A stretch of DNA of 33,197 nucleotides, from NCBI GenBank assembly GCA_031177555.1, contig JAPSGM010000001.1, positions 1 through 33,197 on the forward strand. Reading direction: 5' to 3'. A program made the position numbers and the translations under genes. Positions 1-26,595 of this stretch are shown piece by piece. The notes beneath the pieces were generated by a model, which was not told the DNA's origin, did not search any database, and saw only the letters and a program-made list of their open reading frames with translations. The DNA comes from Chloroflexota bacterium (lineage in GTDB: Bacteria > Chloroflexota > Limnocylindria > QHBO01). The stretch's first letter is position 1. Each line of letters begins with the position of its first letter.

Positions 1-820
1 GGTTGATCTCGTCATCGGCGTGAGGGCCGTGCTCGATCGCGTACACCTCGCCCGTCTCGGGGTGGATCGCCAGGCCCTGGGAGTTCCGATGCCCGAGCGA
101 GTACACCAGCGTCGGTCCTTCGTTGCCGGGCAGGCCGGGATTGCCACTCGCCGGGGTGCCGTCGCGGTTCAGGTGCAGAACCTTCCCGTTGAACGTATCG
201 GTCTGCTGCGACTCGAGCAGGGCGTTCCGTAGGGCGTCCCCGGTGGACATCCAGAGCGTCCCGATGGAATCCATCTCGACCCCGCACCCGTCGTGCTGGC
301 GGTTGGCAACGATCAGCTCGTCGAAAACAGGCCCCTCGAACTCCAGCTGGTGCTCGGCCGTGACCCGATAGCGGAGGAGCTCGTTTCGCCACGGCGCAGG
401 CCCCGTCTCCCCGTCGGCGTCCCGGGAGGCGCAGACGTAGAGATACGGGAACGACGCGAAATCGGTATCGATCGCAACGCCCATGACACCCGCCTCGCCA
501 AACGTGCGCAGGTCGGGAACCTCGGCACTGGCCAGCAGCTCGGCCCCCTCGGTGCCACTGGCGTACACCTTGATGCCGATCCGACGCTCCGAGACGAACA
601 TCGTGCCGTCCGGCGCGAAGGCGATGTCCCACGGCGCCTCGAGATCGCGCTGGATCACGCTGACGCGCAGGTTGTCGATCACGGGGGGAGGAGTCCGGGT
701 CCCGAGTGTGCTGCCACCAGGGCTCGGCGTGGGCAACACCTGACCGCACGCCGCGAGCAGGAGTGTGGCGACGAGCACGACCGTCGGCGCGGATCGGCCG
801 ACGAGCGAGCGGGTGAACAT
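1..820 (-). CDS. PQQ-dependent sugar dehydrogenase (GSDH / soluble aldose dehydrogenase family), predicted lipoprotein; partial, C-terminus lies beyond the window start
   Basis: This gene is not in the ORF track because it runs off the edge. My translation of the minus strand from ATG 820-818 gives MFTRSLVGRSAPTVVLVATLLLAACGQ (signal peptide plus lipobox). It continues with LEAPWDIAFAPDGTMFVSE, NGKVLHLNRDGTPASGNPG and YSLGHRNSQGLAIHPETGEVYAIEHGPHADDEIN, which match conserved GSDH beta-propeller blocks. A GGGGAG Shine-Dalgarno (832-827) lies 6 nt upstream of the ATG. Confidence 0.8.
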   Translation of the reverse strand, partial: MFTRSLVGRSAPTVVLVATLLLAACGQVLPTPSPGGSTLGTRTPPPVIDNLRVSVIQRDLEAPWDIAFAPDGTMFVSERRIGIKVYASGTEGAELLASAEVPDLRTFGEAGVMGVAIDTDFASFPYLYVCASRDADGETGPAPWRNELLRYRVTAEHQLEFEGPVFDELIVANRQHDGCGVEMDSIGTLWMSTGDALRNALLESQQTDTFNGKVLHLNRDGTPASGNPGLPGNEGPTLVYSLGHRNSQGLAIHPETGEVYAIEHGPHADDEIN

Positions 821-871
821 CGGAAACTCCCCCTGCCGTGCGCGGCGGGAAGACATCAGGCGCCGGGCACT

Positions 872-1654
872 TTAGGCGTCGTTCTGAGGGGTGGGCAGCA
901 CTCCGCCGGGGCGTCGCTTGACGTAGTCGCCAAATCGGAAGTACTTCCAGTACACGCTGCGCACGGCGCGCGTCGCCTTCAGCAGCAGCTTGCTCCAGAG
1001 CGGGACCTTCACCGGTCCCCATGCGGGCGGGAACTGGTAGCCCCACTCTTCCATGTACGGGCCGAAGACCCACTTCGCGCGCCGAATGGCACGAGGTGTG
1101 AAGTACCCCGCGAAGTCCCGCTGAGCATCGCGTTCCGAGGTGGCGTTGACGACCGGCAATGGCCGAACCGGCTCGATGCCGATCCTGCGCAGTGTCTGAT
1201 CGAAGTCGGCGGCCAGCGACTCCACGCAGAGGATGGCATCCATCCGTTTGTGGTCCAACGCCGCCCAAGTGTCGTACGGCACCTTGTACCAGCGAAGCAG
1301 GAAGTCCTCGAAGCTCGCGTCGTGCTCCTGCACCCAGCGGTAGATCCGACGCTCCAGCCGGCCTGCCAGCGAGTTGCGGAGCGCGACACGCTCCGGCTCC
1401 GTAAACCGCCCGCGCCTGTCGTCCTTGAGGTGGACGAACCGCGTCACCGCGACGTCCAGCGGATTCCGGATCCCCGAAAAGGCGAAGTACGAGCGCTCGT
1501 CCTCCGACGCGATGCGCAGGAAGTCGCGATAGGTGGCGTGCTTCCTGAGGATGGGATGGCCGTCGTAGTGCTCGCGCAGCTCGCGGCTCACCGCCGTGGA
1601 CCCGGTGCGAGGCAGCTCCACGTAGACGTATCGGTACTTGTGGCTGATGATCAC
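872..1654 (-). CDS. Sulfotransferase, family-2 type (PAPS-dependent)
   Basis: This is the in-frame part of ORF 872-1882. I set the start to GTG 1654-1652, which forms a GTGA overlap with the stop of the upstream GT4 gene. VIISHKYRYVYVELPRTGSTAV carries the 5'-phosphosulfate loop and FAFSGIRNPLDVAVTRF carries the 3'-phosphate RNP block. Sequence upstream of 1654 in this frame is R/A/G/P-rich shadow. Confidence 0.85.
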   Translation of the reverse strand: MIISHKYRYVYVELPRTGSTAVSRELREHYDGHPILRKHATYRDFLRIASEDERSYFAFSGIRNPLDVAVTRFVHLKDDRRGRFTEPERVALRNSLAGRLERRIYRWVQEHDASFEDFLLRWYKVPYDTWAALDHKRMDAILCVESLAADFDQTLRRIGIEPVRPLPVVNATSERDAQRDFAGYFTPRAIRRAKWVFGPYMEEWGYQFPPAWGPVKVPLWSKLLLKATRAVRSVYWKYFRFGDYVKRRPGGVLPTPQNDA

Positions 1655-2901
1655 CGACTGGCTCCTGCGTTGCTCGGGCTGCCGCCCGGATGCCGGCCAT
1701 CGCGGGAGCGGGCCGCTCCGGACAGCTCGCGATGTAGATCGTAGACCCTGGCGAGCACCCGCCGCGCGGCCAGCGGCTCGGCAGCCCTGCGGCACTCGGC
1801 GCGCAGGCCATCGCGGGGAGTGCCCAGCAGCCACCGGATGCCCTCGGCGAGGGCATCGGCGGAGTGGTCGCGCGCCACCCATCCCGTCTTCCCGGTGCTG
1901 ACGACGGCGCTGATCTCGCCGACGGGGGTTGTGACCACCGGCAGCCCGCAGGCGAGCGCCTCGAGGCCCACGGTGGGGCCCGTCTCGAAGGCGGAGCTGA
2001 TCACCAACCCGTCGGCGGCGTTCATCAGCAGCGCCAGCTCGACGCGGGGCCGCGTGCCCAGGAAGCGAACTCGCGCCGCGCAGCCCAGCCGCTCCCCGAG
2101 CGCGTCCAGCTCGCCGCGCAGCGAGCCGTCGCCCGCGACCAGGAGCGTGGTGCCGCCGGCCTGCGTGGCACGCGCGAAGGCCTCGAGGAGCAGCTGCGGG
2201 CGCTTCTGGCCCTCAAGCCGGCCGGCGTACAGCAGGATCCGCTCCGTCGCCGGCACGCCGAGCTCGGCCTCAAGCCGTCCCCGAAGGTCGCGGCGCTGGC
2301 CCGCGTCGGTGGCCGCGAACACCTTGTCGTCGAACCAGTTCGGCAGGAACTCGATCCGGTCGGCCACCTCGCGGAACCGAGCTCGGTACCGTTCGGTGGC
2401 GATCCTGTTCACGACGTAGATGCGCTGCATGCGCCGGAATGCGACACCCTCCACCGCGTCCAGCGGCCGCCCCAGGCGGCGCCACCGGCTCTCCGATGCG
2501 GCGTCCGCGAGGTCCTCGCGGGTGAGATGCACCACCCGCCACATCGGGCCGTCATGCCCAAGCAGCGGAAGCGCGGTGGCCGGGCGGTGGAACTGGGTCA
2601 CGCGTCCGGCGGTCGGAATGCGCCGGTGGCGTGCGGCCAGGGCCGCGGTGAAGCGGAGAGCCAGCGGGACCACGCTCCGACCCGTGCCGCGGGACAGCCG
2701 GGCGATCGGCAGGAAATCCATGCGGCTCCCCTCGAAGTCGATCGCCTGCCAGCTGCCGAGCGGCCTGGTGGCGGCCATCCCGACCATGGCCACGCGAAAG
2801 TCGGATGGGGCGAACTTGACGAAGCTGCGGATGAAGGAGGCGATGCCGCCGATGCTCATGTCCTCCGGATCGGCGGGCAGGACGATGAGCGGCCGGATCA
2901 C
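1651..2901 (-). CDS. Glycosyltransferase family 4 (GT-B, Glycos_transf_1)
   Basis: 416-aa ORF. The GTG start at 2901 overlaps the stop of the Wzy-like gene (GTGA). The C-terminal half has LLYAGRLEGQKRPQLLLEAF and VISSAFETGPTVGLEALACGLPVVTT (E-x7-E). Confidence 0.9.
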   Translation of the reverse strand: MIRPLIVLPADPEDMSIGGIASFIRSFVKFAPSDFRVAMVGMAATRPLGSWQAIDFEGSRMDFLPIARLSRGTGRSVVPLALRFTAALAARHRRIPTAGRVTQFHRPATALPLLGHDGPMWRVVHLTREDLADAASESRWRRLGRPLDAVEGVAFRRMQRIYVVNRIATERYRARFREVADRIEFLPNWFDDKVFAATDAGQRRDLRGRLEAELGVPATERILLYAGRLEGQKRPQLLLEAFARATQAGGTTLLVAGDGSLRGELDALGERLGCAARVRFLGTRPRVELALLMNAADGLVISSAFETGPTVGLEALACGLPVVTTPVGEISAVVSTGKTGWVARDHSADALAEGIRWLLGTPRDGLRAECRRAAEPLAARRVLARVYDLHRELSGAARSRDGRHPGGSPSNAGASR

Positions 2902-4274
2902 GCGGTCGATGGCGATGTTTCCGGCGCCTCCGCCTGGTGCTCCGCGCCCGTCGTCGGGGGTGCGAGCAGGAAAGCCCCGACGAAGATGGCCGCCATGACG
3001 CTCGTGACCCCGACGGTGAAGAGGTTGTTCACGACCGCCTGGGCCTCGAAGGCGAGCACCGCGATGGCCCCGGCGATGTGGATCGCGGATCTGGCGTGGC
3101 GAGCCCGGAACAGCACCAGCAGCGCGAGGGCCGCGAGGCTGAGGTGCAGCAGCAGGGCGCCGGCCGCGCCGAGCACGCCCAGCTCAGCGCCGGCCAGGAG
3201 CACCGAGTTGTGCGCGCTGGCACCGGCACGACCCAGCGGCGTGTCGATGTAGCGCTCCGGCCAGTCGCGCATGGTCGCCAGCATCTCGCCGGTGCCGACG
3301 CCGGTCAGCGGGTGGTCGATCATGAGCAGGACGGCGGCATACCAGAGCGCCAGCCGGTTGGTGGCGTCGCTCACGAACCGCTCACCCAGCGGCGTCAGCA
3401 GCGTGATCACGATGCCGGCACCGATGATCGGGACGGCGAGGACCGGCCGCCTGGCCAGGAGCACGACGGCGACCACCCCCACCGCGGCCAGCCCGATCGG
3501 CGCGCGCGAGAAGGTCAACGTCAGCCCGATGATCTGCACGACCGCGCACGCCAGCCACACCAGCCGGGCGCGCCGCGTCCTGGCCTCGATGGCGAGCCCC
3601 ACGGTCAGGAGCAGCGAGACCATCAGGATCGCTCCGAGGAAGTTGGCCCCCACGCCGAGCGTGCCGGTGATGCGGCCGGGCACCTCGCCGAACAGCGCCG
3701 ACCTTGGCCCCTTCTCGCTGCCGAGGCCGATGTCGCCGGGCAGCGGCACCAGGAAGGCCACGATGCCGAAGACGGCCTCGAACGTCCCGACCACCGCGAC
3801 GGCGCTTGCCACGAACTCGGCGGCACCCTCGCGGCGGCTCACCGCCCAGGCCACCGCCACGGCGATAACGGCCAGCATGGCGAGCCGGCCGGAGCTGCGC
3901 ATCACCATCCGGAAGAAGTCGAAGGGTGACTCGGCCACCAGCAAACTGGAGATGACGCCGGCGACGAACAGGACCGCCAGGCCGATGGCGAGGCCGATCA
4001 GGACCTGCCGCTTGACCGCCAGCCGCGGAAAGTCCTCGAACGGAGCGAGGGCCAGCAGCAGCCCGACGAGGCCCACGATTGCCGGGATGTCGTCGAGGCT
4101 GAAGCCGAGCGTGATGTGCACGTTGGGCACCAGCGGTGTCATGGCCAGGACCAGCAGCGATCCCGCGAAGCGCCAGCCGAACCGGCGGGTGGTGATGATC
4201 GTCACGGCGACCGCCACCAGGGAGATGGCGATCGCGACTCCGGTGAGCGCCAGGAGCTCCCAGCTGAGGGTCAT
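2898..4274 (-). CDS. O-antigen ligase/polymerase-like membrane protein (Wzy_C domain), copy 1
   Basis: 458-aa polytopic ORF. TFSRAPIGLAAVG, IDHPLTGVGTGEM and SAHNSVLLAGAELGVLG match Wzy_C blocks. The ATG at 4274 lies 4 nt after the upstream stop. Confidence 0.85.
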   Translation of the reverse strand: MTLSWELLALTGVAIAISLVAVAVTIITTRRFGWRFAGSLLVLAMTPLVPNVHITLGFSLDDIPAIVGLVGLLLALAPFEDFPRLAVKRQVLIGLAIGLAVLFVAGVISSLLVAESPFDFFRMVMRSSGRLAMLAVIAVAVAWAVSRREGAAEFVASAVAVVGTFEAVFGIVAFLVPLPGDIGLGSEKGPRSALFGEVPGRITGTLGVGANFLGAILMVSLLLTVGLAIEARTRRARLVWLACAVVQIIGLTLTFSRAPIGLAAVGVVAVVLLARRPVLAVPIIGAGIVITLLTPLGERFVSDATNRLALWYAAVLLMIDHPLTGVGTGEMLATMRDWPERYIDTPLGRAGASAHNSVLLAGAELGVLGAAGALLLHLSLAALALLVLFRARHARSAIHIAGAIAVLAFEAQAVVNNLFTVGVTSVMAAIFVGAFLLAPPTTGAEHQAEAPETSPSTA

Positions 4275-4278
4275 CGGC

Positions 4279-5229
4279 TCATGCCGACCACGCGGCGAGG
4301 TCTCGGTCGATCAGCGTCTCCAGCCGGGCGACGTCATCGGCCAGTTCCGCGACGAGGCGAGCGCGGAGGTCCGGATCGATCGGCGGTCGCTGCTGATACC
4401 TGATGTTGGCACGCTTCATGAGACGCCAGGCGGCGTGGTGGAGCGGGCCCGGCAGCGCGTTCACGACGGTGCCCACGGCGCGGCCCTTGCGGACGCGCTG
4501 CAGCAGCGAGCTGCGAGCCACCTTGTTCTGGTTGACGACCGCGAAGTCCGGCTCGAAGCCGGTGCTCACCTCGAGGAATGACAGGACGTCGCGGTATGCG
4601 GTGCGGGCATCGGCGCTGAAGTCGTCGTAGAGGAGGACCTTCACGGCGTCGCGGCCGAAGGTCTCCAGGTAGCGCTCGACGTGTGCCGCATAGCGGGCGC
4701 AGGCGCGGTACTGCAGTCCCTCCGGCCTCCGAACGTCCGGCGGCAGGCGCCGTCCCTGCCGCCGGTCCTCCTCGGCATCGAGCGCCTGGGCGAAGTCCTC
4801 GACGTCCTCGTTGCCGGTGAAGAGCCAATGGCTGTGCAGCGAGTGGATCATCTCCACCGGATCGCGCAGCATGATGATGATCCGGGCGTCGGGGTCGAAG
4901 CGCCTGATCTCGGCGGCCGCGGTCCGCGAGTACAGGTACCACACCGTCGCCTCGCCCAGCCGCCGCTTCCCCCGTCCGGGCCCGAAGAGCTTCAGGTAGC
5001 TCGGCTCGTCGAGGAGCGGTGGCCGCTTGGTCAGGTCCGCCCCGAAGTACACCGGCTCCTTGCGATAGGGCATGAACACGTCCGGATGCTGTCGCAGGTA
5101 CTCGTACATGGCCGTGGTGCCGGATCGCGGCGCCCCGACGATGAAGAAGTTCGGCCTCGGATCCGCCACGTCCGTGGAGGCGAGGCCCAGGCCGCCTCGC
5201 GGCAGGCTCGATGCCTGGTCAGGATTCAT
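4279..5229 (-). CDS. Sulfotransferase-domain protein (heparan-sulfate-sulfotransferase-like fold)
   Basis: 316 aa. FFIVGAPRSGTTAMYEYL is the 5'-PSB P-loop and IIMLRDPVEMIHSLHSHW is the 3'-PB block. There is an ATGA overlap with the upstream stop (5226-5229). No TM helix or signal peptide. It is a paralogue of 9899-10828. Confidence 0.9.
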   Translation of the reverse strand: MNPDQASSLPRGGLGLASTDVADPRPNFFIVGAPRSGTTAMYEYLRQHPDVFMPYRKEPVYFGADLTKRPPLLDEPSYLKLFGPGRGKRRLGEATVWYLYSRTAAAEIRRFDPDARIIIMLRDPVEMIHSLHSHWLFTGNEDVEDFAQALDAEEDRRQGRRLPPDVRRPEGLQYRACARYAAHVERYLETFGRDAVKVLLYDDFSADARTAYRDVLSFLEVSTGFEPDFAVVNQNKVARSSLLQRVRKGRAVGTVVNALPGPLHHAAWRLMKRANIRYQQRPPIDPDLRARLVAELADDVARLETLIDRDLAAWSA

Positions 5230-5972
5230 CGGTCCGCCAGGAGCTGCACCAGGCCCGCGTAGTCCTCTGGCGTATCGATCTCATGCCACCACGTCTCCCC
5301 GATCTCGCAGCCCGTCAACGATCCGGTCGTCGCGGCCAGCTCGCTCACCAGATCGTGCCAGATGGCGCGCCCTGCGGATTTCGCCTCGCGCTCCACGAAG
5401 TCGGTCAGCAGCCCGTCGAACATGGCGCGCGCTTCCTCGCCGCAGGCCAGGAACAGGCCGGCGGACACGCCGTGGGTTCGTTCGTCGGCCAGCCCCTTGC
5501 CGACCGCGGCGACCGTGCCATCGCCGCGAAGCGAGACCCGCACGTCATCGGTCTCGGCCACCCGCCTCGAGAAGCCCAGGCGGAACCCGCCGGCGTCGAC
5601 CGACCCGACCGCGCGAAAGGCTTCCGGCCGGTAGTAGGTGTCGCCGTTGCCGATCATGATGTCGGCTGACGTGATGACGTCCCGCGCGGCCCACAGCGAC
5701 CAGATCGGGCCGTGCGAGGCGAAGTCGGGGTTGTAGCGCGTCTCGACCGCGCCCGCCCTGGCATGCCGCGCGACCTCCTGCTCAATCGCGTCGGAACAAT
5801 ACCCGGTGACGACCACGACGCGGCGCACGGCGCCCGACAGGTGCGCGTTGCGAAGGTTCTCGCCGAGCAGCGATCCGCCATCGGGCGTGGGGACCAGGGC
5901 CTTGGGGATCGGGCCCGTGACCGACGCCAGGCGGGTGCCCTGGCCGGCGGCGAGCAGAATGAGGTCCGTCAT
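5226..5972 (-). CDS. Sugar/alcohol-phosphate nucleotidyltransferase, LicC-like (probable cytidylyltransferase)
   Basis: 248 aa. LILLAAGQGTRL...PKALV is the nucleotide-binding signature. The YNPDFASHGPIWSLW block resembles phosphocholine-type cytidylyltransferases. There is an ATGA overlap with the stop of the TagF-like gene. Confidence 0.75.
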   Translation of the reverse strand: MTDLILLAAGQGTRLASVTGPIPKALVPTPDGGSLLGENLRNAHLSGAVRRVVVVTGYCSDAIEQEVARHARAGAVETRYNPDFASHGPIWSLWAARDVITSADIMIGNGDTYYRPEAFRAVGSVDAGGFRLGFSRRVAETDDVRVSLRGDGTVAAVGKGLADERTHGVSAGLFLACGEEARAMFDGLLTDFVEREAKSAGRAIWHDLVSELAATTGSLTGCEIGETWWHEIDTPEDYAGLVQLLADR

Positions 5973-7324
5973 CGGTTCGACGCCGATGCGGCTTTGCCGG
6001 CAGCGGCGCCGGTGACCGCCCCGACCCCGGCCCCGACCTCGGCCCCGACCGCAAGGACGATGCGCTCGCAGCTGCCCGGCGAGTCCGCGTAGCCGCTTCG
6101 CTCCCTGATCAGCGCGGGCAATGCCAGGTCCGCGGCGTCGTCACCGTCCGCGGCGCTCCGGATCGCGTCGAGCAGCGAGGGCCACTCGACGTGATGCTGG
6201 CCCCGGGTCCAGCTCTCGAGTGGCTCGTAGAGATCGCGGCTCTGGCCGTGCTCGGCGATGTCGGGGGCGAAGACGTGGATGGGTCGGGCGAGGATCGCGT
6301 AGTCGAATGCAGCGCTCGAGTAATCGGTGACGAGGGCATCGGCGATGCGCAGCAGGCAGTTCACGTCGGCGATCTCGTCGCCGAGCATGCGCACGTGGCC
6401 ATCCAGCGCGAGGCGGTCGCGAAAGACGCCGGGATCGTTGTTGGGATGCGGCTTCACGACGAGCCTGACCCTGGACCCGCCGAGCGCCCGCTCCACCTCC
6501 GCTGCGTCGAGGGCCGGCAACCAGGCCTCGTCCCCCTCCTCGCGCCAGGTCGGCAGCCACAGGACGACGTGGTCATCGGGCGCCAGCCCCAGGCGAGCGC
6601 GGAGGTCGCCGCGGACGACGCGGTCGTACGCGGGGCCGCCCAGGATGACGTCGAACCGTGGCGTTCCGAGGACCCGGATCCGGTCGGGCGGGCCACCGAA
6701 GGCGCTCAGGTACCACGTCTTCGCCAGCTCACCGGGAGCGACCACCATGTCGACCTGTCCCAGCCGGCGGGACATGAACCAGCGGTACGCGCGCGCGGCC
6801 ACGCCGCCGACGGCGGAGCCGCCCATCAGGCGCGACTGGTCCACGTCGAGCAGCACGCGCTTGAGCCCCTTTCCGTGCCGAAGGTGGACGAGGAAGGCGC
6901 CGCTCAGGTTCGCGGTCTCGAGATCCTCGAAGCCGGTGCAGATGAACGCCGCGCCGGCGCGGCGATGGACGTCGGCGGACTCCCGCGTGCCGTGGATGGC
7001 GGAGCGCAGGCCGGCGTCGTGTGCCTGGCGAGCGTCGCGCTCGTTCGCCGCGATCCACCACGTCTCGATCTGGGGGTGGGCGTGCAGGAGGTGCTCGGCA
7101 AGATATCGCGTGTTGTCGCGGAATCCTCGCCGGTTCCCCAGGATCCAGGTGCGGGCCTCGCGGCGGCCGAAGCGGCTCAGGACGCGTCCAGGCAGGCCGG
7201 CCGCACGCCTGCCGGCCTTGTGCAGCATCCCTGCCCGTGAGCCAGCCCTGCCTCGCGGCTCGTCATGCCCGCGTTCGGCGATCCCGCCGTCCTCCCGAGC
7301 GTCGCTCGGCGGTCCGATGGCCAC
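5969..7324 (-). CDS. CDP-alcohol phosphotransferase of the TagB/TagF family (Glyphos_transf; CDP-glycerol glycerophosphotransferase-like)
   Basis: This is the 3' part of ORF 5969-7852. It carries LGTPRFD, LWLPTWRE, VVKPHPNN and LVTDYSSAAFDYAIL. I set the start at GTG 7324 because AGGAGA (7335-7330) lies 5 nt upstream. ATG 7228 is an alternative start. The rest of the track ORF overlaps sulfotransferase 7342-8241 and looks like shadow sequence. Confidence 0.85.
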   Translation of the reverse strand: MAIGPPSDAREDGGIAERGHDEPRGRAGSRAGMLHKAGRRAAGLPGRVLSRFGRREARTWILGNRRGFRDNTRYLAEHLLHAHPQIETWWIAANERDARQAHDAGLRSAIHGTRESADVHRRAGAAFICTGFEDLETANLSGAFLVHLRHGKGLKRVLLDVDQSRLMGGSAVGGVAARAYRWFMSRRLGQVDMVVAPGELAKTWYLSAFGGPPDRIRVLGTPRFDVILGGPAYDRVVRGDLRARLGLAPDDHVVLWLPTWREEGDEAWLPALDAAEVERALGGSRVRLVVKPHPNNDPGVFRDRLALDGHVRMLGDEIADVNCLLRIADALVTDYSSAAFDYAILARPIHVFAPDIAEHGQSRDLYEPLESWTRGQHHVEWPSLLDAIRSAADGDDAADLALPALIRERSGYADSPGSCERIVLAVGAEVGAGVGAVTGAAAGKAASASNR

Positions 7325-7341
7325 GTCCGTCTCCTGGCCGT

Positions 7342-8241
7342 CTAGCCCGATGCCGCCACGGGCATGCGCCAGCCGGGCAGCGGTCGCGTGAGGGTCTCGA
7401 CGTAGGCGATGTCCCGCTCGAAATGGGCCAGGAGCCGCTCCTGCAGCTGGGCGGGCATCGCAGGATACGCGGCCCTCTTCATGTTGCGCGCCTCGAGCGC
7501 ATTCCGCAGCCGGTGAGCGGGTCGTCGAACGAACCGCGGCAGGAAGCTCCAGCTGCGGTAGCGCGTGCCGGCGATGGCCCGATGCAGGAGTCGGCTGCTG
7601 GGGACGGCATGCGGGTTGTACTCCGCGTCGAACGACGGCAGGAACCCGTCGTCGACGCCCACGAAGCGGCAGATCCTGCGGTAGGTCTCGGGCGGATCGC
7701 TCCGCAGGTCGTCGTACAGGACGAGGTGCACGCGCTCGGGCCCCAGGGCATCGAGGTAACGGCGCACGTGGCGCTCGTAGCTGCTCATGTACAGCAGGTA
7801 GCGAAGGTCCGGGTGGTCCTCGACGACCTCCGAGAAGGGCGGCATCGGCCACCCGCGCTTCCAGTTGTGCCAGTAATGCGAGTACGCCCGCTCGACCGGC
7901 TGACGCAGCACGAAGATGACCTTGAGCCCGGGGACGTGCTTCTCCATCAGCTCGGGGCCGTCCAAGGCGCCGAGGTAGTGCGTGCTGGCTTCGCCACGCG
8001 CCAGGCAGTCCTCTCCCCCCTCGAACAGGCTCTCGTACCAGGCGATGCCCTGGCTGTACGTGTCCTCGCGCAACGGACCGATGATGCGCACGCCCGGCTC
8101 CGGAACATTAGCGTCGCGCGTGAGGAAGTGGGGTTCCTTCACGGGGCTCATCCAGACCTGCGGGTGAGCGTCGAGGAGGCGCCAGAGGGCCGTGGTCCCT
8201 GACTTCGGTGCTCCTCCGATCACGAAGGTCGGCAGGGTCAA
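7342..8241 (-). CDS. Sulfotransferase-domain protein
   Basis: 299 aa with a TTG start. FVIGGAPKSGTTALWRLL is the 5'-PSB block and IFVLRQPVERAYSHYWHN is the 3'-PB block. No TM helix or signal peptide. Confidence 0.88.
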   Translation of the reverse strand: MTLPTFVIGGAPKSGTTALWRLLDAHPQVWMSPVKEPHFLTRDANVPEPGVRIIGPLREDTYSQGIAWYESLFEGGEDCLARGEASTHYLGALDGPELMEKHVPGLKVIFVLRQPVERAYSHYWHNWKRGWPMPPFSEVVEDHPDLRYLLYMSSYERHVRRYLDALGPERVHLVLYDDLRSDPPETYRRICRFVGVDDGFLPSFDAEYNPHAVPSSRLLHRAIAGTRYRSWSFLPRFVRRPAHRLRNALEARNMKRAAYPAMPAQLQERLLAHFERDIAYVETLTRPLPGWRMPVAASG

Positions 8242-8353
8242 GGGTCGTGGTCAGCCGCGCGCGCGAAGGGCGCGGCGGTCCTGTGGGTCGGGATCACGGG
8301 GCGGAATGATAGCCGGTTGCGTACGGGAGCGCGGGTGGAGCATCCAGCCCCGG

Positions 8354-9865
8354 CTACCGGGCACCCACCGGCGGCGGTCGGGACACCGCACGTCGCCCGA
8401 CGCCGAGGATCTCGCGGACGAGGTCTCGCTCCACCAGCAGCATGGCCAGGACGAACACCATGGCGCCGGCCAGCACCTCCGCGGCCAGCAGCATGGCCGG
8501 GCTCGCAGGGGCCACCGCCTTGACTGCCGCCACCGCCACGGCCATGGCTGCGGTGGCCAGGGCGGTCCCTCGCAGCTGGGCCAGCATCGCCCCGGCCGGA
8601 ACGCCCGCGTACCTCGAGACCCACGCGAGGTTGAGCGGGATCAAGAGGTATCCGCGTGCGACGAACGCGGCGGCGACGGCGAGGATCCCGATCTGGACCG
8701 CGATCAGGAACCCGACCACGTTCACCACCGTGGTGATGAGCCTGAATCGAAAGACGACGCCGGGGTGCCCGGCGGCGTTCAGCAGGGCGCCGCTGAAGGC
8801 CTGCAGCGTGAGGACCGGACCGATGAGGAACAGGATGCCGGCCACCGGGCCGCTCGGCGCCCAGCGGTCCCCGAAGAGCGTGACGGTGAGCTCGGTCGAG
8901 ACCAGGGCGAGCCCGATGTAGCCGGGCAGGATGATCGCGCCCGCGGCGCGCGTGACGCGAAGGTAGGCGCGACGCATCCGTTCCGGGTCCGACTGGAGGC
9001 GAGAGAAGGCCGGAAAGGTGACCTTGCGCGCCACGTTGACCAGCATCACCTCGGTCACGTCCAGGATGCGGTAGCCGACCGAGTAGAAGCCGAGCGGCGT
9101 GGTGCCGAGGAATGAGCCGATGAGCAGGTTGTCGACGTTCCGGCTCGCGAAGTTCAGGATGTCCGAGCCCAGGATGTTCACCCCGAAGCGGAAGAGCTCC
9201 CGGAACGTGTCCCACGAGTAGTCTCGACCTGGACGCCATGGGCTGACCGCCCATAACAGGACCATCGACACGAATGCGCCGGCCACCTGCTGCCCGACGA
9301 GGGACCACACGCCGAATCCGAGGAAGGCCATGGCGATGCCCACCGCCCCGCCGGCCGCGATCCCGCCGAGGGCCCGCATGGCCAGCGCCCGGAAGTTCAG
9401 GCTGCGCCGCAGGAGCGCAATCTGGATGCTGCCGAGCGCGGACAGCAGGAACGTGCCGGAGAGGACCTGCAGGATCGGCTGCAGGTCGGGCTCCCCCAAC
9501 AGGAAGGCGATGGGGATGGCGAGAAGGATGCCGGCCAGCGCCAGCAGCCCGCCCGTGCTGAGCGCGACCCAGAACGCGGTGTCGATATGCCGCCGGGTGA
9601 GAACTGGTCGCTGGATGAGCGCATCGCCCAGGCCCTGGTCCACGACCAGCTGGGCCAGGTTGACGAACACCGCGGCCAGCGCCACCAGGCCGAAGTCGTC
9701 CGGGACGAGCAGCCGGGCGAGAACGACGAAGATCGTCAGGTTGAGAAGCTGACGACCCCACGTGTGGATGAAGGTCCACGTCAGGCCGCGGGCTATCTGA
9801 CCCCCAAGCCCGGACTCTCCCGGCTCGCCCGGAGCCGGCCCGAGGCCCTCCGCACGGTCAGGCAA
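8354..9865 (-). CDS. wzx: Wzx-type polysaccharide flippase (MOP superfamily)
   Basis: 503 aa with a TTG start and about 14 hydrophobic helices. The N-terminal block LNLTIFVVLARLLVPDDFGLVALAAVF...GLGDALIQR is typical of polysaccharide-biosynthesis flippases. Confidence 0.85.
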   Translation of the reverse strand: MPDRAEGLGPAPGEPGESGLGGQIARGLTWTFIHTWGRQLLNLTIFVVLARLLVPDDFGLVALAAVFVNLAQLVVDQGLGDALIQRPVLTRRHIDTAFWVALSTGGLLALAGILLAIPIAFLLGEPDLQPILQVLSGTFLLSALGSIQIALLRRSLNFRALAMRALGGIAAGGAVGIAMAFLGFGVWSLVGQQVAGAFVSMVLLWAVSPWRPGRDYSWDTFRELFRFGVNILGSDILNFASRNVDNLLIGSFLGTTPLGFYSVGYRILDVTEVMLVNVARKVTFPAFSRLQSDPERMRRAYLRVTRAAGAIILPGYIGLALVSTELTVTLFGDRWAPSGPVAGILFLIGPVLTLQAFSGALLNAAGHPGVVFRFRLITTVVNVVGFLIAVQIGILAVAAAFVARGYLLIPLNLAWVSRYAGVPAGAMLAQLRGTALATAAMAVAVAAVKAVAPASPAMLLAAEVLAGAMVFVLAMLLVERDLVREILGVGRRAVSRPPPVGAR

Positions 9866-9898
9866 GGAGGTGCCGGCACGTGGCGGCGCCCGATCCGG

Positions 9899-10828
9899 TC
9901 ATGGCGACACCCAGTGCGTCAGGTCGCGGTCGACCATCTCCGACAGGCGCGCGACCTCGGGCCTGAGCTCGTCCGCCAGCCGGGCCCTAAGCTCCGGATC
10001 GACACCGTCGCGCGGGACGCGGGTGCTGTTGAGCCGCAGCAGCGCATCGCGGGCGCGGTGCACGATGGCGTAGCGCCGAAGGCGAGGGATGAGCGGCCGC
10101 AGAAGCGGCGGATTCCAGATCAGCCGCTGGAACCAGCCGGCGCGCACCCGCTTGTTCTCGTTCCGTGGACCCAGGTCGACCGGCACGCCCGGGTCGACCC
10201 CCAGGAACTCGAGCAGCCGGCGGTACACGCCGGCGGTGTCGTCCCGGAAGTCATCGAAGATGATCACGTGCACGCGATCCCGTCCGAAGACCGACAGGTA
10301 TCGGTCGAGCTGCTCCGAGAAGCGGACCATGCGCCGGTAGAGGAGGTTCTCGGGACGGATCGGTCCCGGCGGCAGCCGCCGGCCGGCGGCCCGTTCCGGT
10401 TCGGCGGCGAGCGCGTCCCCGAAATCGCGCAGCGTTTCCTGGCGGTTGAACAGCAGCTGGCTGTGCTGGGCATGCATCACGTCGATGGGGTTGCGCAGCA
10501 TCACGACGATGCGCGCGCCGGGGATCGCCGCGTGGATCTCCTCGGCCGCGCAGGCTGAGTACAGGTACCACGCCGACGCCTCTCCCTTCAGGGCGCCGAT
10601 GGGCGCGTCGTCGAAGAGTGCGCGATACTCCTCCTCGGTCATCGGGCCGTATCGTGAGGTCAGGTCGGAGCCGAAGAACAGCGGCTCCTTGATGAACGGC
10701 ATGAACACGTCCGGGTGCTGCCGAAGGTAGTCGTACATGGCGGTCGTGCCACATTTCGGGGCGCCGACGATGAGGAAGTCGGGCAGATCGCCACCCGGGC
10801 GTCGAGTCATCGGGCACGAGTATGCCAC
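9899..10828 (-). CDS. Sulfotransferase-domain protein (paralogue of 4279-5229)
   Basis: 309 aa from GTG 10828; ATG 10810 is an alternative start. It carries FLIVGAPKCGTTAMYDYLRQHPDVFMP and VVMLRNPIDVMHAQHSQ. It aligns with 4279-5229 along the whole length, including the C-terminal DPELRARLADEL...RDL.HW. Confidence 0.9.
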   Translation of the reverse strand: MAYSCPMTRRPGGDLPDFLIVGAPKCGTTAMYDYLRQHPDVFMPFIKEPLFFGSDLTSRYGPMTEEEYRALFDDAPIGALKGEASAWYLYSACAAEEIHAAIPGARIVVMLRNPIDVMHAQHSQLLFNRQETLRDFGDALAAEPERAAGRRLPPGPIRPENLLYRRMVRFSEQLDRYLSVFGRDRVHVIIFDDFRDDTAGVYRRLLEFLGVDPGVPVDLGPRNENKRVRAGWFQRLIWNPPLLRPLIPRLRRYAIVHRARDALLRLNSTRVPRDGVDPELRARLADELRPEVARLSEMVDRDLTHWVSP

Positions 10829-10892
10829 CGTGCCAGCCCGGGGGCTGTCAGACTAGCGCCGCCATTGGCGACGCGTGCGGAGGAACGTTTCG

Positions 10893-12203
10893 TTGAAGAT
10901 CGCGATCATCGGGCTGGGGTATGTGGGCGCCGTCACCGCGGCGTGCCTCGCGGACCTGGGCCGGGCCGTCATCGGCGTCGACCAGGACGCGACGAAGGCC
11001 GATGCGATTGCGGGCGGCCGCTCCCCGATCGCCGAGCCGGGCCTGGACGAGCTGCTGGCGGCCGGCGTTGCCGCGGGCTCCATCGAGGTGGGGTCGGTCG
11101 CGACCGCCGTGCCGGCCGCGGACGTGATCATGATCACGGTCGGCACGCCATCGGCTCGAACCGGGGCGCTCGACCTCACCGCCGTCCTTCGCGTCGCCGA
11201 GGAGATCGGTGCGGCGCTGCCGCGCGACGGTCGCATCCGCACCGTCGTGGTCCGCAGCACCGTGCTCCCGACGACCACCGAGGAGCTCGTCGGACCGGCT
11301 ATCGAGCGCGCTTCGGGCATGGCGGCCGGCAGCGACTTCGGGTTGGCCATGAATCCCGAGTTCCTGCGCGAGGGTTCGAGCATCCGCGACTTCTACGAGG
11401 CGTCGCGGACGATCATCGGCGCCGGCGACGAGCGCTCGGCGCAGCAGGTGCGTGCCGCCTACGAGGGGCTCGCGGCGCCGGTCGAGGTCGTTTCCATCCG
11501 GACCGCCGAGATGGTCAAGTACACCGACAACGCCTTCCACGCCACGAAGATCGCGTTCGCGAACGAGATCGCCAGCTTCGCCCGGGCCTTCGGGCTGGAT
11601 GGGCGCGAGACGATGCGCCTGATGGTCTCCGACGAGCGCCTGAACATCTCGCCGGCCTACCTGCGCCCCGGCTACGCGTTCGGTGGCTCGTGCCTCCCCA
11701 AGGACCTGCGCGCGCTCACCGACCGCGCGCGCAAATCGGACGTCGACCTTCCGCTGCTCGATGCCGCGCTTGCGAGCAACGCGGCCCACTTCGAACGCGG
11801 GGTCCGGCTCGTCGAGGACGCTGGCCACCGCGACGTCGCGCTGCTCGGCCTGAGCTTCAAGGCCGGCACCGATGATCTCCGCGAGTCGCCGGCCGTGGCG
11901 CTGGCCGAGCGGCTGCTGGGGCGCGGCTACTCGCTGGCCATCTACGACCCCGACGTCTCGCCGGCGACGCTGCGCGGTGCCAACCTGACCTTCATCCAGC
12001 AGCACCTGCCCCATCTCGTGCAGCTCCTGACCGACGACGTCGAGGCCGCGGTGGCCGGCGCCGACACGGTCGTGATCGCGAAGGGATCGGTCGCCGTCGA
12101 TCGGCTCGCCGCGCTCCTCCGCCCCGAGCAGACCGTCGTGGACCTGGTCGGCTGCGACGAGGTCGCGGTCGGCCCGGCCCGCTACCTCGGGATCGGCTGG
12201 TGA
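10893..12203 (+). CDS. Nucleotide-sugar 6-dehydrogenase, most like GDP-mannose 6-dehydrogenase (AlgD type)
   Basis: Track ORF 10875-12203. I moved the start to TTG 10893, with GGAGGA at 10879-10884 and an 8-nt spacer. This gives MKIAIIGLGYVGAV and 436 aa. It carries the catalytic GYAFGGSCLPKDLRAL plus VVVRSTVLP, NPEFLREG and LLGLSFKAGTDDLRESP. From memory these blocks fit AlgD better than Ugd, so the substrate call is tentative. Confidence 0.9.
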   Translation: MKIAIIGLGYVGAVTAACLADLGRAVIGVDQDATKADAIAGGRSPIAEPGLDELLAAGVAAGSIEVGSVATAVPAADVIMITVGTPSARTGALDLTAVLRVAEEIGAALPRDGRIRTVVVRSTVLPTTTEELVGPAIERASGMAAGSDFGLAMNPEFLREGSSIRDFYEASRTIIGAGDERSAQQVRAAYEGLAAPVEVVSIRTAEMVKYTDNAFHATKIAFANEIASFARAFGLDGRETMRLMVSDERLNISPAYLRPGYAFGGSCLPKDLRALTDRARKSDVDLPLLDAALASNAAHFERGVRLVEDAGHRDVALLGLSFKAGTDDLRESPAVALAERLLGRGYSLAIYDPDVSPATLRGANLTFIQQHLPHLVQLLTDDVEAAVAGADTVVIAKGSVAVDRLAALLRPEQTVVDLVGCDEVAVGPARYLGIGW

Positions 12204-12219: not shown

Positions 12220-14370
12220 ATGTACCCCGGAGCCAGCGCGCGCCCAGCGCATTCCCACGGCGTGAGATCCGCCCAGTCCCCACCGGACTCGCTGCGCCCT
12301 GCCCCTCCGGGATCGGGTCCCGGCGAGGAGTCGGCCTGGGACACCGCGGTCTCGACGACCGGGCCCGCCCATTTCCGGCCGGACATCGAGGGCCTGCGGG
12401 CCGTCGCCATCCTGGCCGTGCTGGCGTACCACGCTCGACTGCCATGGATCACCGGCGGCTTCGTGGGCGTCGACGTCTTCTTCGTGATCTCCGGCTTCCT
12501 CATCACCGGGCTGCTCCTGCGGGAGTTCAGCGCCAGCGGCCGCATCGACCTGCCGGCGTTCTACGCCCGCCGGGCGCGGCGGCTCCTTCCGGCGGCCCTG
12601 GTCGTCATCGCCGTAACGGTGCTCGCGTCGGCCCTGATCGTCTCGCCGGTGATCTTCCCGTCCATCGCCGGTGACGGGGCGGCGGCGGCGCTGTACGTCT
12701 CGAACTACCGCTTCGCCCTGAGCGCGACGGACTATTTCGCCGCAGAGGGCGCTCCGTCACCGCTGCTGCACTACTGGTCGCTGGCGGTGGAGGAGCAGTT
12801 CTACCTCTTCTGGCCGCTGCTGATCCTGGTGGGTGCCCGCTACCTGTCGGTCCGCCGGCTGTGGATCCTGGTGGCCGCAGTGGGCCTCGCCTCGTTGGTC
12901 GCATCGGTGGTCATGACGAACGTGGAGGCGCCATGGGCGTTCTATTCGCTGCCGACGAGGGCGTGGCAGCTCGCCCTCGGGGGCCTGGTGGCGCTCGGCG
13001 TCCTGGCGCTCCCGGAACGCTGGCCGGCGCACGCGGCCTCGGCGCTGGGCGCGGTCGGCATGCTGGTGATCGTCGCTTCCGTGGTGCTGATCAACGACAC
13101 GACGCCCTTCCCCGGCCTGGCGGCGCTGGCGCCGGCCATCGGCACCGCGTCGCTGATCGTCGCCGGTGAGAAGGCCTCGGCCGTGCCCGCCAGGCTGCTG
13201 GCCATGTCGATACCGCGCTGGTTCGGCCGCATCTCGTATTCGCTGTACCTGTGGCACTGGCCCCTGCTGATCCTCGTTCCAGTCGCGTTGAGCCGCGATG
13301 GACCCCGGCTGCGGATCGCCCTGGCCGTGGCGGCCATCGTGCTGGCGGCGCTCAGCACGCGCTTCATCGAGCGGCCGTTTCGCACCGGATGGGCGGCTCG
13401 GCACACCAGCCGCTGGACGCTGGCGGGGGCCGGGGCGATGTCGGTGCTCGTGGCCGTGTCGGCGGTGACCGCCGGCGGGAACCTGGCGACCCCCAGCGAC
13501 GGCGAACCGCTTCCCTCGCTGCCACCGGCCGACACCCGCCCCGAGCTGCCCCGGGGCCTCTTCTCGGGACCCGTGCCCGCCGACCTGCAGCCGCCGTTGC
13601 TGGGAGCGCTGGACGACAAGGCGAGCGTGATGGTGGACGGTTGCCGCGCCGGCTTCCCGCAATCGGAGCCCAGGGACTGCGTCTATGGCAATCCCGACTC
13701 GCCCACCACGGTCGTCCTGTTCGGTGACTCGCACGCCGCCATGTGGCAGCCCGCCATCGAGCGCATCGCGCTCGACCGTGACTGGCGGATCGTGGCGCTC
13801 ATCAAGCCCGCCTGCCCACCGGTCGACGTCGTGTCGTGGTCCAGGCGCCTGAAGCGTGAGTTCACCGAGTGCCACGAATGGCGCGACCTGGCCATCCAGC
13901 GGATCGCATCCATTCGCCCGAGCATCACCTTCGTGGCATCGGCGAAGGACCACGCCATCCTTAGCGCGCGTGGCAAGCGCGTGATCGGGACGGACAAGCG
14001 CGCTTGGAAGGAGGGCCTGGAAGCGGTGCTGGTACGGCTGCGCGAGGCGAGCGAGCGGGTCGTCCTCATCGGTGAAGTGCCGCATCTCGAGATCGACGCG
14101 CTCGATTGCCTGGCCGAGCATCGCACGCTCGACCCGTGCGTGGTGATGGGCGCCGATGTCATCGACGAGCCGTACGAGCGGGTCGAGCGCCGCGCCGCCC
14201 GGCGGGCCGGCGTGCAGTGGATGAGGACGACGCGGTGGATCTGCCCCGGTCAGCGCTGCCCGATGGTGAGGGGCAACTACCTGGTGTATCGCGATCGCGA
14301 CCACCTCACCGCGACGTTCGCCGGCGTGCTGGCCGCCAACGTCCGCTGGGCACTGGATCATCCGCAGTGA
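12220..14370 (+). CDS. OafA/YrhL-type membrane acyltransferase (Acyl_transf_3) fused to a C-terminal SGNH domain
   Basis: 716 aa. RPDIEGLRAVAILAVLAYHA...GFVGVDVFFVISGFLITG is followed by about 10 TM helices. The C-terminal domain has VVLFGDSHAAMW (SGNH block I). The start is uncertain: ATG 12220 has no SD, and GTG 12262 is an alternative. Confidence 0.85.
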   Translation: MYPGASARPAHSHGVRSAQSPPDSLRPAPPGSGPGEESAWDTAVSTTGPAHFRPDIEGLRAVAILAVLAYHARLPWITGGFVGVDVFFVISGFLITGLLLREFSASGRIDLPAFYARRARRLLPAALVVIAVTVLASALIVSPVIFPSIAGDGAAAALYVSNYRFALSATDYFAAEGAPSPLLHYWSLAVEEQFYLFWPLLILVGARYLSVRRLWILVAAVGLASLVASVVMTNVEAPWAFYSLPTRAWQLALGGLVALGVLALPERWPAHAASALGAVGMLVIVASVVLINDTTPFPGLAALAPAIGTASLIVAGEKASAVPARLLAMSIPRWFGRISYSLYLWHWPLLILVPVALSRDGPRLRIALAVAAIVLAALSTRFIERPFRTGWAARHTSRWTLAGAGAMSVLVAVSAVTAGGNLATPSDGEPLPSLPPADTRPELPRGLFSGPVPADLQPPLLGALDDKASVMVDGCRAGFPQSEPRDCVYGNPDSPTTVVLFGDSHAAMWQPAIERIALDRDWRIVALIKPACPPVDVVSWSRRLKREFTECHEWRDLAIQRIASIRPSITFVASAKDHAILSARGKRVIGTDKRAWKEGLEAVLVRLREASERVVLIGEVPHLEIDALDCLAEHRTLDPCVVMGADVIDEPYERVERRAARRAGVQWMRTTRWICPGQRCPMVRGNYLVYRDRDHLTATFAGVLAANVRWALDHPQ

Positions 14371-18253: not shown

Positions 18254-18256
18254 GCC

Positions 18257-20421: not shown

Positions 20422-20430
20422 CGGCCCGCC

Positions 20431-20436
20431 ATTCTA
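20431..20436 (-). promoter_or_regulatory. Putative internal -10 hexamer TAGAAT ahead of the aminotransferase gene
   Basis: The minus strand reads TGA (neuC stop), TGGCCGG, TAGAAT, GGCGGGCCG (9 nt), then ATG at 20421. Confidence 0.3.
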
Positions 20437-20443
20437 CCGGCCA

Positions 20444-24352: not shown

Positions 24353-24360
24353 CGGGCTGC

Positions 24361-25946: not shown

Positions 25947-26595
25947 GCACCGCACCCACCGTGCGGGCCAGGATGCCCGCATCCATGGCCAGGCTCCGCT
26001 CGTTGACGTAGCGGACGTCGAACTGGACGCGCTCCTCGAAGGTGCGGTCCGCCCGACCGTTCACCTGCCACAGCCCGGTGATGCCGGGGCGAACGCGCAG
26101 GATGAGCTCCGCCTCCGGGCGGCCTTCTAGCTCGCCGGGGAAGTACGGCCGCGGCCCGATCAGGCTCATCTCGCCGGTCAGCACGTTGACCAGCTGGGGC
26201 AGCTCGTCGAGCGACATGCGGCGCAGGATGGCGCCCACCCGCGTGCGGCGCGGATCGTCGCGCAGCTTGCGGCGCTCGCCGTACTCCAGCGCCCACTCCT
26301 CGTCGACGGTCAGGAGCTCCTCGAGGTGGTGGTGGCTCCCGTCGCGCATCGTGCGGAACTTCAGGACGACGATGGGCTTGCCGAAGCGGCCCATGCGGTG
26401 GCACTTGTAGATGATCGGCAGGCCCGTGTCGATCCAGATCGCCACCGCGATGATCACGAAGAACGGCAACAGGATCGCGAGCAGGACAGCCGACCCGACA
26501 ATGTCAACGAGGCGCTTGGTGAACCAGTAGAGGAGCTCTCCGAGCGAGGCCGGGCGCGTCGAGGCAACGGCTTGTTGCTGCGAGATCTGCTCCAA
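25924..26595 (-). CDS. Small monotopic undecaprenyl-phosphate sugar-phosphotransferase (Bac_transf, PglC-like initiating PGT)
   Basis: 223 aa. The TTG start at 26595 has AGGAG 6 nt upstream. There is one N-terminal hydrophobic helix, LLAILLPFFVIIAVAIWI. It also carries KFRTM and DELPQLVNVLTGEMSLIGPRP. Confidence 0.9.
   Translation of the reverse strand: MEQISQQQAVASTRPASLGELLYWFTKRLVDIVGSAVLLAILLPFFVIIAVAIWIDTGLPIIYKCHRMGRFGKPIVVLKFRTMRDGSHHHLEELLTVDEEWALEYGERRKLRDDPRRTRVGAILRRMSLDELPQLVNVLTGEMSLIGPRPYFPGELEGRPEAELILRVRPGITGLWQVNGRADRTFEERVQFDVRYVNERSLAMDAGILARTVGAVLSGRGAY

Follow-up and report, generated by a model that had tools for sequence, protein, structure and literature searches.

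We analysed a 33,197-nucleotide stretch of the metagenome-assembled genome (MAG) of a soil bacterium from the Chloroflexota class Limnocylindria (assembly GCA_031177555.1, contig JAPSGM010000001.1, positions 1 to 33,197; the whole stretch is called the window below) and focused on positions 872-10828, where four sulfotransferase genes lie among genes for glycan assembly. This array probably forms the central part of a conserved locus for a surface glycopolymer, responsible for its assembly and tailoring; sulfate groups would be transferred in the cytoplasm from 3'-phosphoadenosine 5'-phosphosulfate (PAPS) to multiple sites of a glycan that is exported by a Wzx/Wzy system. As predicted from its genes, the locus most likely builds a cell-surface sugar polymer with several sulfate groups, a decoration previously unreported for Chloroflexota in the literature searched.

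Gene calling by third-position G+C content (GC3) together with Pfam searches reproduced the gene map of an earlier note on this DNA, which had described an array on one strand with a flippase, a polymerase-like protein, a family 4 glycosyltransferase (GT4) and a TagF-like enzyme. Nine minus-strand genes form an unbroken, operon-like array at positions 872-10828. All genes of the earlier list are confirmed, but a nucleotidyltransferase gene also belongs to the array, which thus encodes four soluble sulfotransferases (STA to STD), the flippase, the polymerase-like protein, the GT4, the TagF-like phosphotransferase and the nucleotidyltransferase:

872..1654, minus strand: STA, very probably a divergent Sulfotransfer_2-like sulfotransferase, 260 amino acids (motifs, homologues, weak fold match)
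1651..2901, minus strand: GT4a, glycosyltransferase (Pfam Glycos_transf_1, 112 bits)
2898..4274, minus strand: Wzy1, Wzy_C-domain polymerase or ligase-like membrane protein (Pfam Wzy_C, 44 bits; about 14 hydrophobic segments)
4279..5229, minus strand: STB, heparan-sulfate-type (Sulfotransfer_1/_3) sulfotransferase, paralogue of STD (Pfam, PDB sequence matches)
5226..5972, minus strand: NTP, NTP_transferase/MobA-like nucleotidyltransferase (Pfam; weak PDB match to 4JD0)
5969..7324, minus strand: TagF-like (Glyphos_transf) phosphotransferase, 451 amino acids (Pfam PF04464, 149 bits)
7342..8241, minus strand: STC, heparan-sulfate-type sulfotransferase (Pfam, PDB, alignment with 3-OST-1)
8354..9865, minus strand: Wzx, MOP-family flippase (Pfam Polysacc_synt_3, 298 bits; NCBIfam MOP flippase)
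9899..10828, minus strand: STD, heparan-sulfate-type sulfotransferase (Pfam, family alignment; the public gene call starts at 10810)

Transcription runs in the order STD, Wzx, STC, TagF-like gene, NTP, STB, Wzy1, GT4a, STA. The earlier note had spoken of many 4-nt start/stop overlaps; these are found at four of the eight junctions (GTGA at STA/GT4a, where the GT4a stop overlaps the STA start, and at GT4a/Wzy1; ATGA at STB/NTP and at NTP/TagF), whereas the other four are gaps of 4, 17, 33 and 112 nt. The TagF-like gene starts with GTG at 7324, preceded by AGGAG. The only sizeable gap in the array, 112 non-coding nucleotides (8242-8353) that separate the stop of the flippase gene from the start of STC, matches nothing in Rfam and shows neither a promoter nor a terminator consensus, and scans for promoters, terminators, Rfam families and tRNAs were all uninformative. 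No sulfotransferase-like open reading frame (ORF) beyond STA to STD is present in the window. NTP has no TagD or TarI equivalog in NCBIfam and presumably supplies an activated donor to the TagF-like enzyme.

By family and motifs, STB, STC and STD are clear PAPS-type sulfotransferases, in agreement with the earlier assignment of a heparan-sulfate-sulfotransferase-like domain to these three proteins. All of them exceed the curated Pfam cut-offs for Sulfotransfer_3 (PF13469, 27 bits) and Sulfotransfer_1 (PF00685, 22 bits), with scores between 39 and 72 bits (57.6 and 53.1 for STB, 71.7 and 61.9 for STC, 63.5 and 39.3 for STD, respectively). Searches of PDB sequences with STB and STC as queries retrieved the bacterial sulfotransferase 3RNL (E 8e-51 for STB, which is ~45% identical to it over the full length; E 1.5e-35 for STC) as well as heparan sulfate 3-O- and N-sulfotransferases (E 1e-6 to 5e-9); the family placement of STD relies on Pfam and on an alignment of the heparan-sulfate-like family. 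The motifs quoted in the earlier note are present: the 5'-phosphosulfate-binding (PSB) loops of the three enzymes read GAPRSGTT, GAPKSGTT and GAPKCGTT, with GAPKSGTT belonging to STC, and the 3'-phosphate motifs of STB (LRDPVEMIHS) and STC (LRQPVERAYS) are complete R-x-P-x(5)-S elements, whereas STD (LRNPIDVMHA) has Ala in place of Ser. In addition, the three enzymes carry the Lys-Glu motifs KEPVYF, KEPHFL and KEPLFF. STC aligns in register with the heparan sulfate 3-O-sulfotransferase 3-OST-1 (GAPKSGTT with GVRKGGTR, KEPHF with NEVHF containing Glu-x-His, and LRQPVERAYS with LRDPSERVLS), and we take the Glu of the K/N-E-x-H/x-F-F motif to be the catalytic base, as in 3-OST-1. In a set of 39 homologues, drawn from this locus and its relatives, 38 keep the PSB loop, and Lys/Arg-x-Gly-Thr-Thr, Lys-Glu and Arg-x-Pro are nearly universal. 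STB and STD share 45% identity over 293 residues and are full-length paralogues, as stated before; STC is ~30% identical to each.

The start of STC was set at the TTG at 8241 because the PSB loop needs it, and homologues of 295-318 amino acids cover 97-99% of the long form. The public gene call (269 amino acids, start at 8151) cuts off the PSB loop and was rejected. Two relatives of STC, P0242 (83% identical) and P0243 (80%), are likewise shortened, to 269 and 268 amino acids.

STA is in all likelihood a divergent Sulfotransfer_2-like enzyme, an assignment reached through homologues, motifs and a weak fold match. The earlier note had called it a family-2 sulfotransferase, which its motifs and relatives bear out, but the direct profile search fails the cut-off: there was no match to PF03567 at E<=0.01, and nothing was found in NCBIfam, by phmmer against the PDB or by hmmsearch of the PDB with the family profiles A1 and A2. 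STA contains a PSB loop (PRTGST, residues 14-19), the R-x-P element RNPLDVAVT (residues 62-70) and His38, a histidine of the catalytic type. Over 43 diverse members of its family, H38, R62 and P64 are invariant and T16 is nearly so, and 28 of 42 diverse relatives with 28-53% identity match PF03567 at E<=1e-3, the best at 3.8e-12. Alignment of STA with the heparan-sulfate-like family by hhalign puts PSB loop and R-x-P in register (E 0.006). The AF2 model of STA has a pLDDT of 91, and its top 18 Foldseek matches in the PDB are all sulfotransferases, with a probability of up to 0.97. The family, with 611 close matches, is uniformly labelled hypothetical; clustered at 50% identity, it comprises 231 clusters at E<=1e-30, 968 at 1e-10 and 7016 at 1e-3, the 231 clusters being candidates for a new clade of carbohydrate sulfotransferases.

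Related loci (L013-L044, e.g. L025, L028, L029 and L030) contain a second subgroup of the STA family with 39-57% identity to STA. In about ten loci its members follow one or two GT4 genes and a gene resembling UDP-glucose 6-dehydrogenase (UGDH), and in most of the loci a heparan-sulfate-type sulfotransferase gene is lacking within 10 kb. Both subgroups occur together in some genomes, an example being contig CAVRFT010000006.1 with loci L009 and L017.

The absence of a signal peptide or transmembrane helix from all four sulfotransferases, as claimed earlier, was assessed by a simple hydropathy scan. The scan was clear in each case: no 19-residue window exceeds 1.2 on the Kyte-Doolittle scale, as compared to 12-15 such segments in Wzx and Wzy. 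PAPS is a cytoplasmic metabolite. Because of this location, because the enzymes lack export signals and because the same logic underlies the model for the cyanobacterial polysaccharide synechan (PMC8205485), sulfation would be expected to take place at the cytoplasmic face of the membrane.

Pfam analysis of the window genes revealed no PAPS-synthesis genes, which agrees with the earlier note; sulfate-activation genes do lie just outside the window, however. Logan contig L047 encodes the exact STA protein, overlaps window positions 1-1709 with two mismatches (99.88% identity) and runs ~4 kb further to the left. It contains, in this order, the full GSDH gene whose 5' part lies at the window edge, a DHH/DHHA1 phosphoesterase gene, a gene for a 589-amino-acid DASS transporter (DASS/Na-sulfate-symporter-like, CitMHS-TrkA_C) and the first 200 residues of an ATP sulfurylase, the sulfate module occupying positions 2167-5761 of the contig. 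Altogether, this module was found in eight loci, that is in the own population (L047) and in seven related loci. According to Pfam, an APS kinase gene (APS, adenosine 5'-phosphosulfate) directly follows ATP sulfurylase next to the sulfotransferase cluster of L005, L006 and L049, and in L003 and L012 the APS kinase gene comes after a transporter gene; L003 also has a CysD-like protein. From these relatives we infer that APS kinase follows ATP sulfurylase in the present genome as well; no exact full-length ATP sulfurylase was present in the protein collection searched. The DHH/DHHA1 gene heads the module in eight loci, which suggests that it encodes a dedicated phosphatase for 3'-phosphoadenosine 5'-phosphate (pAp) in place of CysQ; the best NCBIfam model for the L047 protein is NrnA oligoribonuclease/pAp phosphatase, with 84 bits and below the cut-off. 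As judged by gene order, sulfate activation is part of the conserved locus. The earlier note had named the lack of any APS kinase or PAPS route as an observation that would speak against sulfation; because a module for sulfate uptake and activation adjoins the locus, no such lack is apparent, the transporter and ATP sulfurylase being linked here and APS kinase being seen in the relatives only.

To survey related genomes, one genome per GTDB species was scanned with an STA alignment, which yielded 44 loci, nearly all of them in MAGs named Candidatus Limnocylindria, Chloroflexia or Chloroflexota. Related loci share with the window a syntenic block, GlnA-PPase-(LCP)-GT4b-UGDH / Wzx-STD ... GT4a-STA, in which LCP denotes a LytR-CpsA-Psr protein and identities reach 89-91% for GlnA and up to 87% for PPase. 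By this synteny and the GlnA identity the host belongs to Limnocylindria; an actinobacterial origin, to which the G+C content of 68-79% and the LCP and TagF-like genes could have pointed, was rejected on the same grounds. Each related locus has three to seven sulfotransferases, with seven in L007, six in L004 and five each in L006, L008 and L009. STD is the core orthogroup and stands beside Wzx in 11 related species, whereas the other orthogroups vary between species. In L052 and L053 the order STD-Wzx-STC-TagF-NTP-STB is retained with 75-88% amino-acid identity (86% for STB in L052). The more distant L050 still has orthologs of STD (71%), STB (63%) and STC (64%), the latter again joined to a TagF-like gene, and the adjacent nucleotidyltransferase is 29% identical and lies on the opposite strand; a nucleotidyltransferase gene thus stands beside the TagF-like gene in L050, L052 and L053 as well. 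A comparison of the window with L052 gave dN/dS values of 0.15-0.24 for STD, STC, Wzx, the TagF-like gene and NTP, with 0.15 for STD, and by this measure the locus is under purifying selection in the related species. Two gene combinations recur, namely GT4a-STA, with a GT4 gene directly preceding STA in many related loci, and STC-TagF-like-NTP. The former suggests that STA acts on the product of GT4a, the latter that STC acts on or next to a phosphodiester-linked unit.

Further functions that may contribute to the pathway are encoded on both sides of the array:

1..682, minus strand: 5' part of the GSDH-type dehydrogenase gene, bridging to the sulfate module beyond the edge
10875..12203, plus strand: UGDH-type nucleotide-sugar dehydrogenase, predicted to supply uronic acid (divergent from the array; synteny kept)
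12220..14370, plus strand: AT3 and SGNH acyltransferase, predicted to act in extracytoplasmic O-acylation (Pfam)
14367..15635, plus strand: GT4b, second GT4 (Pfam; orthologs of 65-81% identity in related loci)
15632..16636, plus strand: LCP phosphotransferase, candidate polymer-to-wall ligase (Pfam; an LCP gene also stands beside the locus in L008 and L050)
25924..26595, minus strand: small polyprenyl-phosphate glycosylphosphotransferase (Bac_transf), candidate initiating enzyme (Pfam, NCBIfam)

Farther to the right, the window contains the genes of a nonulosonic-acid pathway and those for another Wzy_C protein, this small phosphoglycosyltransferase, GlnA, another LCP protein and a GGDEF protein. 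In total, the window encodes two LCP (PF03816) and two Wzy_C proteins.

These genes can be arranged into a pathway in which PAPS use, the identity of the acceptors, the timing of sulfation, LCP anchoring and the role of the pAp phosphatase are all read from sequence. On the cytoplasmic side of the membrane, the small phosphoglycosyltransferase, the two GT4 enzymes and the TagF-like enzyme with its own nucleotidyltransferase would assemble the repeat unit on undecaprenyl phosphate, and the nucleotide-sugar dehydrogenase would provide uronic acid. The DASS-type transporter, ATP sulfurylase and APS kinase would import sulfate and convert it via APS to PAPS, from which STA, STB, STC and STD may transfer sulfate to different hydroxyls of the lipid-linked unit, while the co-located, NrnA-like DHH/DHHA1 phosphoesterase would hydrolyse the resulting pAp. 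Finally, Wzx would flip the sulfated unit, a Wzy_C protein would polymerise it, the AT3-SGNH enzyme would O-acylate it outside the membrane and an LCP enzyme would probably attach the polymer to the wall.

Co-expressed, cytoplasmic and PAPS-dependent tailoring of one Wzx/Wzy glycan, as put forward in the earlier note, is supported by the families, the motifs, the conserved array and the linked sulfate module. Several observations weigh against it, and the first of these concern the enzymes themselves. STA stays below every curated threshold (its best direct Pfam match is Sulfotransfer_3 with 17.2 bits) and its Foldseek matches are weak (E>=7e-3, TM 0.3-0.4), and STD together with its whole orthogroup carries Ala at the canonical Ser position for binding of the 3'-phosphate. 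Only some of the four proteins might thus be active carbohydrate sulfotransferases, with STA and/or STD being inactive, carrying out other chemistry or using a lipid or a small metabolite as acceptor. We consider this improbable: STA keeps the PSB loop, R-x-P and the invariant His across the 231 clusters, most of the diverse members of its family match Sulfotransfer_2, and it is invariably encoded within a glycan locus, with a GT4 gene directly preceding it and PAPS genes close by. STD, with a dN/dS of 0.15, is more conserved than any other sulfotransferase of the locus.

A second group of such observations concerns context. The APS kinase of this genome is unseen, since L047 ends inside the ATP sulfurylase gene. 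PCP, OPX and linkage enzymes of the TagO/TagA type are missing from the window: PCP (Wzz), OPX (Wza) and XssQ/R/S have no Pfam match among its 30 called genes, and TagO/TagA/TagB, TagD/TarI and TagGH have no Pfam or NCBIfam equivalog in it. Therefore, export and anchoring depart from the textbook route. In several relatives (L015, L041) the locus has no adjacent LCP gene, and the nonulosonic-acid genes and the second Wzy_C gene may serve another glycan. As the locus comes from a MAG of Chloroflexota, its host is not a classical Gram-positive bacterium of known wall chemistry; the class is uncultured, and sulfate on Limnocylindria glycans is predicted from genes.

These observations bear in particular on the fate of the polymer. 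Attachment by LCP enzymes is plausible in view of the two nearby LCP genes, and one could go further and propose an LCP-ligated, teichoic-acid-like heteropolymer containing phosphodiesters, uronic acid and possibly nonulosonic acid, which would be multiply sulfated according to a species-specific 'sulfation code' of three to seven enzymes and served by a dedicated PAPS module. We put this forward as a tentative possibility. A canonical wall teichoic acid pathway was considered and rejected: because the Pfam and NCBIfam searches gave no equivalents of TagO/A/B/D and TagGH and export is assigned to Wzx, the polymer would not be a canonical teichoic acid, and the models for TarL, TarF and TarB reach only 25-59 bits as compared to cut-offs of 500-1000.

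Alternatively, the same sulfated glycan might not be anchored to peptidoglycan at all, but be released as exopolysaccharide (EPS) or capsule or be linked to an S-layer or other protein as an O-glycan, one of the Wzy_C proteins then acting like an O-antigen ligase or O-oligosaccharyltransferase. Nonulosonic acids are typical of protein glycans, and the genes for their synthesis are present in the window. The Wzy_C domain is common to polymerases, ligases and PglL-type transferases, and its two copies, together with the nonulosonic-acid pathway, leave room for a protein glycan or a second glycan. Moreover, the flippase scores 213 bits with the NCBIfam 'O-glycosylation flippase' model, albeit below the cut-off, the conserved block of L015 and L041 has no LCP gene, and sulfated bacterial polymers are known in the form of EPS or capsules (PMC8205485, PMC11766843). 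We nevertheless regard a glycan that is released or protein-linked as rather unlikely, given the two LCP genes in the window, the LCP genes beside the locus in L008 and L050 and the presence of a TagF-like enzyme, which is typical of wall polymers and capsules; furthermore, the analysis identified no gene for an S-layer or a target protein.

The principle of sulfotransferases encoded in polysaccharide clusters is already established elsewhere. The earlier note had described dedicated multi-site sulfation of bacterial surface glycans as rare, and it is indeed documented in few bacteria, but there are precedents: a structurally solved sulfated capsule with co-located PAPS genes in Cobetia (PMC11766843), and clusters encoding two sulfotransferases of two families in Synechocystis (PMC8205485) and Actinoplanes (PMC13390465). 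The synechan (xss) cluster of Synechocystis sp. PCC 6803 is a Wzx/Wzy cluster with two sulfotransferases, and sulfate was shown by composition analysis (PMC8205485). As in the present locus, for which Pfam identifies sulfotransferases, glycosyltransferases, Wzx, Wzy and a priming phosphoglycosyltransferase, sulfotransferases of distinct subfamilies stand among glycosyltransferases in a Terrabacteria host, and the model has the lipid-linked unit modified at the cytoplasmic face (PMC8205485). However, xss has PCP and OPX proteins, reflecting a diderm envelope, and the regulators XssQ/R/S, whereas the Limnocylindria locus, for which sulfation is predicted from genes, encodes four sulfotransferases (up to seven in relatives) and neither PCP nor OPX; its LCP genes, TagF-like phosphotransferase and linked sulfate-activation module come in addition.

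The capsule of Cobetia marina KMM 1449, whose structure was solved by NMR, carries a sulfate ester and glycerophosphate in its repeat unit, and the cluster combines sulfotransferases with PAPS synthesis, the pAp phosphatase CysQ and a sulfate permease (PMC11766843). A cluster uniting sulfotransferases, PAPS synthesis, pAp phosphatase and sulfate transporter thus has a parallel in the present locus, but the Cobetia system belongs to a gammaproteobacterium, is exported by an ABC transporter (kps) on a Kdo-lipid primer, has one sulfate per repeat unit and uses cysNC/cysD/cysQ as compared to Sat/CysC and a DHH-family enzyme in Limnocylindria. In Actinoplanes missouriensis, the Wzx/Wzy cluster wps-1 encodes two predicted sulfotransferases that are both needed for a phenotype (PMC13390465). 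This monoderm Terrabacterium likewise combines one Gal/GlcNAc-type (Sulfotransfer_2-like) with one heparan-sulfate-type enzyme; in contrast to the present locus, there are two sulfotransferases, no TagF-like enzyme and no reported linked PAPS module, and sulfation is a prediction there, too.

With 3-OST enzymes, STC shares the PSB lysine, the catalytic Glu-x-His and R-x-P...S, but the acceptors are unrelated, and in animals the enzymes are type II membrane proteins facing the Golgi lumen, in contrast to the soluble, cytoplasmic STB, STC and STD. The Alicyclobacillus protein 3RNL, related to STB and STC by sequence, has no known substrate. Wall teichoic acid systems resemble the locus in that a nucleotidyltransferase gene adjoins that of a Glyphos_transf-family enzyme and LCP ligases are encoded, but differ in that the locus uses Wzx instead of TagGH and has no equivalogs of TagO, TagA, TagB, TagD and TarI. 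To our knowledge, no characterised teichoic acid carries sulfate, and none was found in the literature searched; nor did we find a paper there that mentions both Limnocylindria and sulfotransferases. A study of Shark Bay reported Chloroflexi MAGs without sulfotransferases. Thus, new features of the present locus are the phylum, the number and species turnover of the sulfotransferases, the combination of TagF-like and LCP proteins with Wzx/Wzy, the module of Sat/CysC with a DHH enzyme and the unannotated Sulfotransfer_2-like clade.

Bacterial sulfated polysaccharides are said to be essentially confined to cyanobacteria (PMC8205485, PMC13390465), and according to a review, Pfam bias hides bacterial polysaccharide sulfotransferases (PMC11625862). 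The Limnocylindria locus contradicts the view of a cyanobacterial speciality: a conserved multi-sulfotransferase locus with its own sulfate module across a class argues for heavily sulfated envelopes in more lineages than recognised. Limnocylindria are an abundant, widespread and uncultured class of soil and freshwater Chloroflexota, and sulfated envelopes could affect sulfur and cation binding in soil, desiccation tolerance and phage recognition. If the polymer is indeed LCP-ligated and multiply sulfated, it would be the first sulfated LCP-attached wall glycopolymer and an instance of heavy glycan sulfation in Terrabacteria outside cyanobacteria. In addition, the enzyme set may serve as a soluble bacterial resource for making defined sulfated glycans.

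Among the neighbouring genes, those at positions 17183-24352 (minus strand) encode what looks like a full set of enzymes for making a legionaminic-acid-type 5,7-diamino nonulosonic acid. The NCBIfam cut-offs are passed by NeuB, the NeuC-type hydrolysing 2-epimerase and the acetyltransferase of the NeuD/PglB family but not by the PseB-like dehydratase or the aminotransferase resembling PseC/LegC, and the CMP-sugar synthetase most likely starts with ATG at 24352. Homologues of PseB and NeuB also flank the sulfotransferase cluster of L003. Within the pathway, an ORF of ~489 amino acids (21598-23067, minus strand) belongs to no Pfam family, matches only TIGR04396 ('surface carbohydrate biosynthesis protein'), and that faintly (E 1e-3), and is without a homologue in the 46 loci L001-L046; it could encode a nonulosonic-acid transferase. 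The second LCP gene is flanked by genes for a Cys/Met-metabolism PLP enzyme resembling cystathionine gamma-synthase (29335-30513, minus strand) and a membrane-bound GGDEF diguanylate cyclase (31992-33188, minus strand). The G+C content of the window ranges from 68 to 79%, with fractions of 0.68-0.72 in the sulfotransferase array, 0.76-0.79 over the nonulosonic-acid genes (20000-25000) and 0.68 at glnA.

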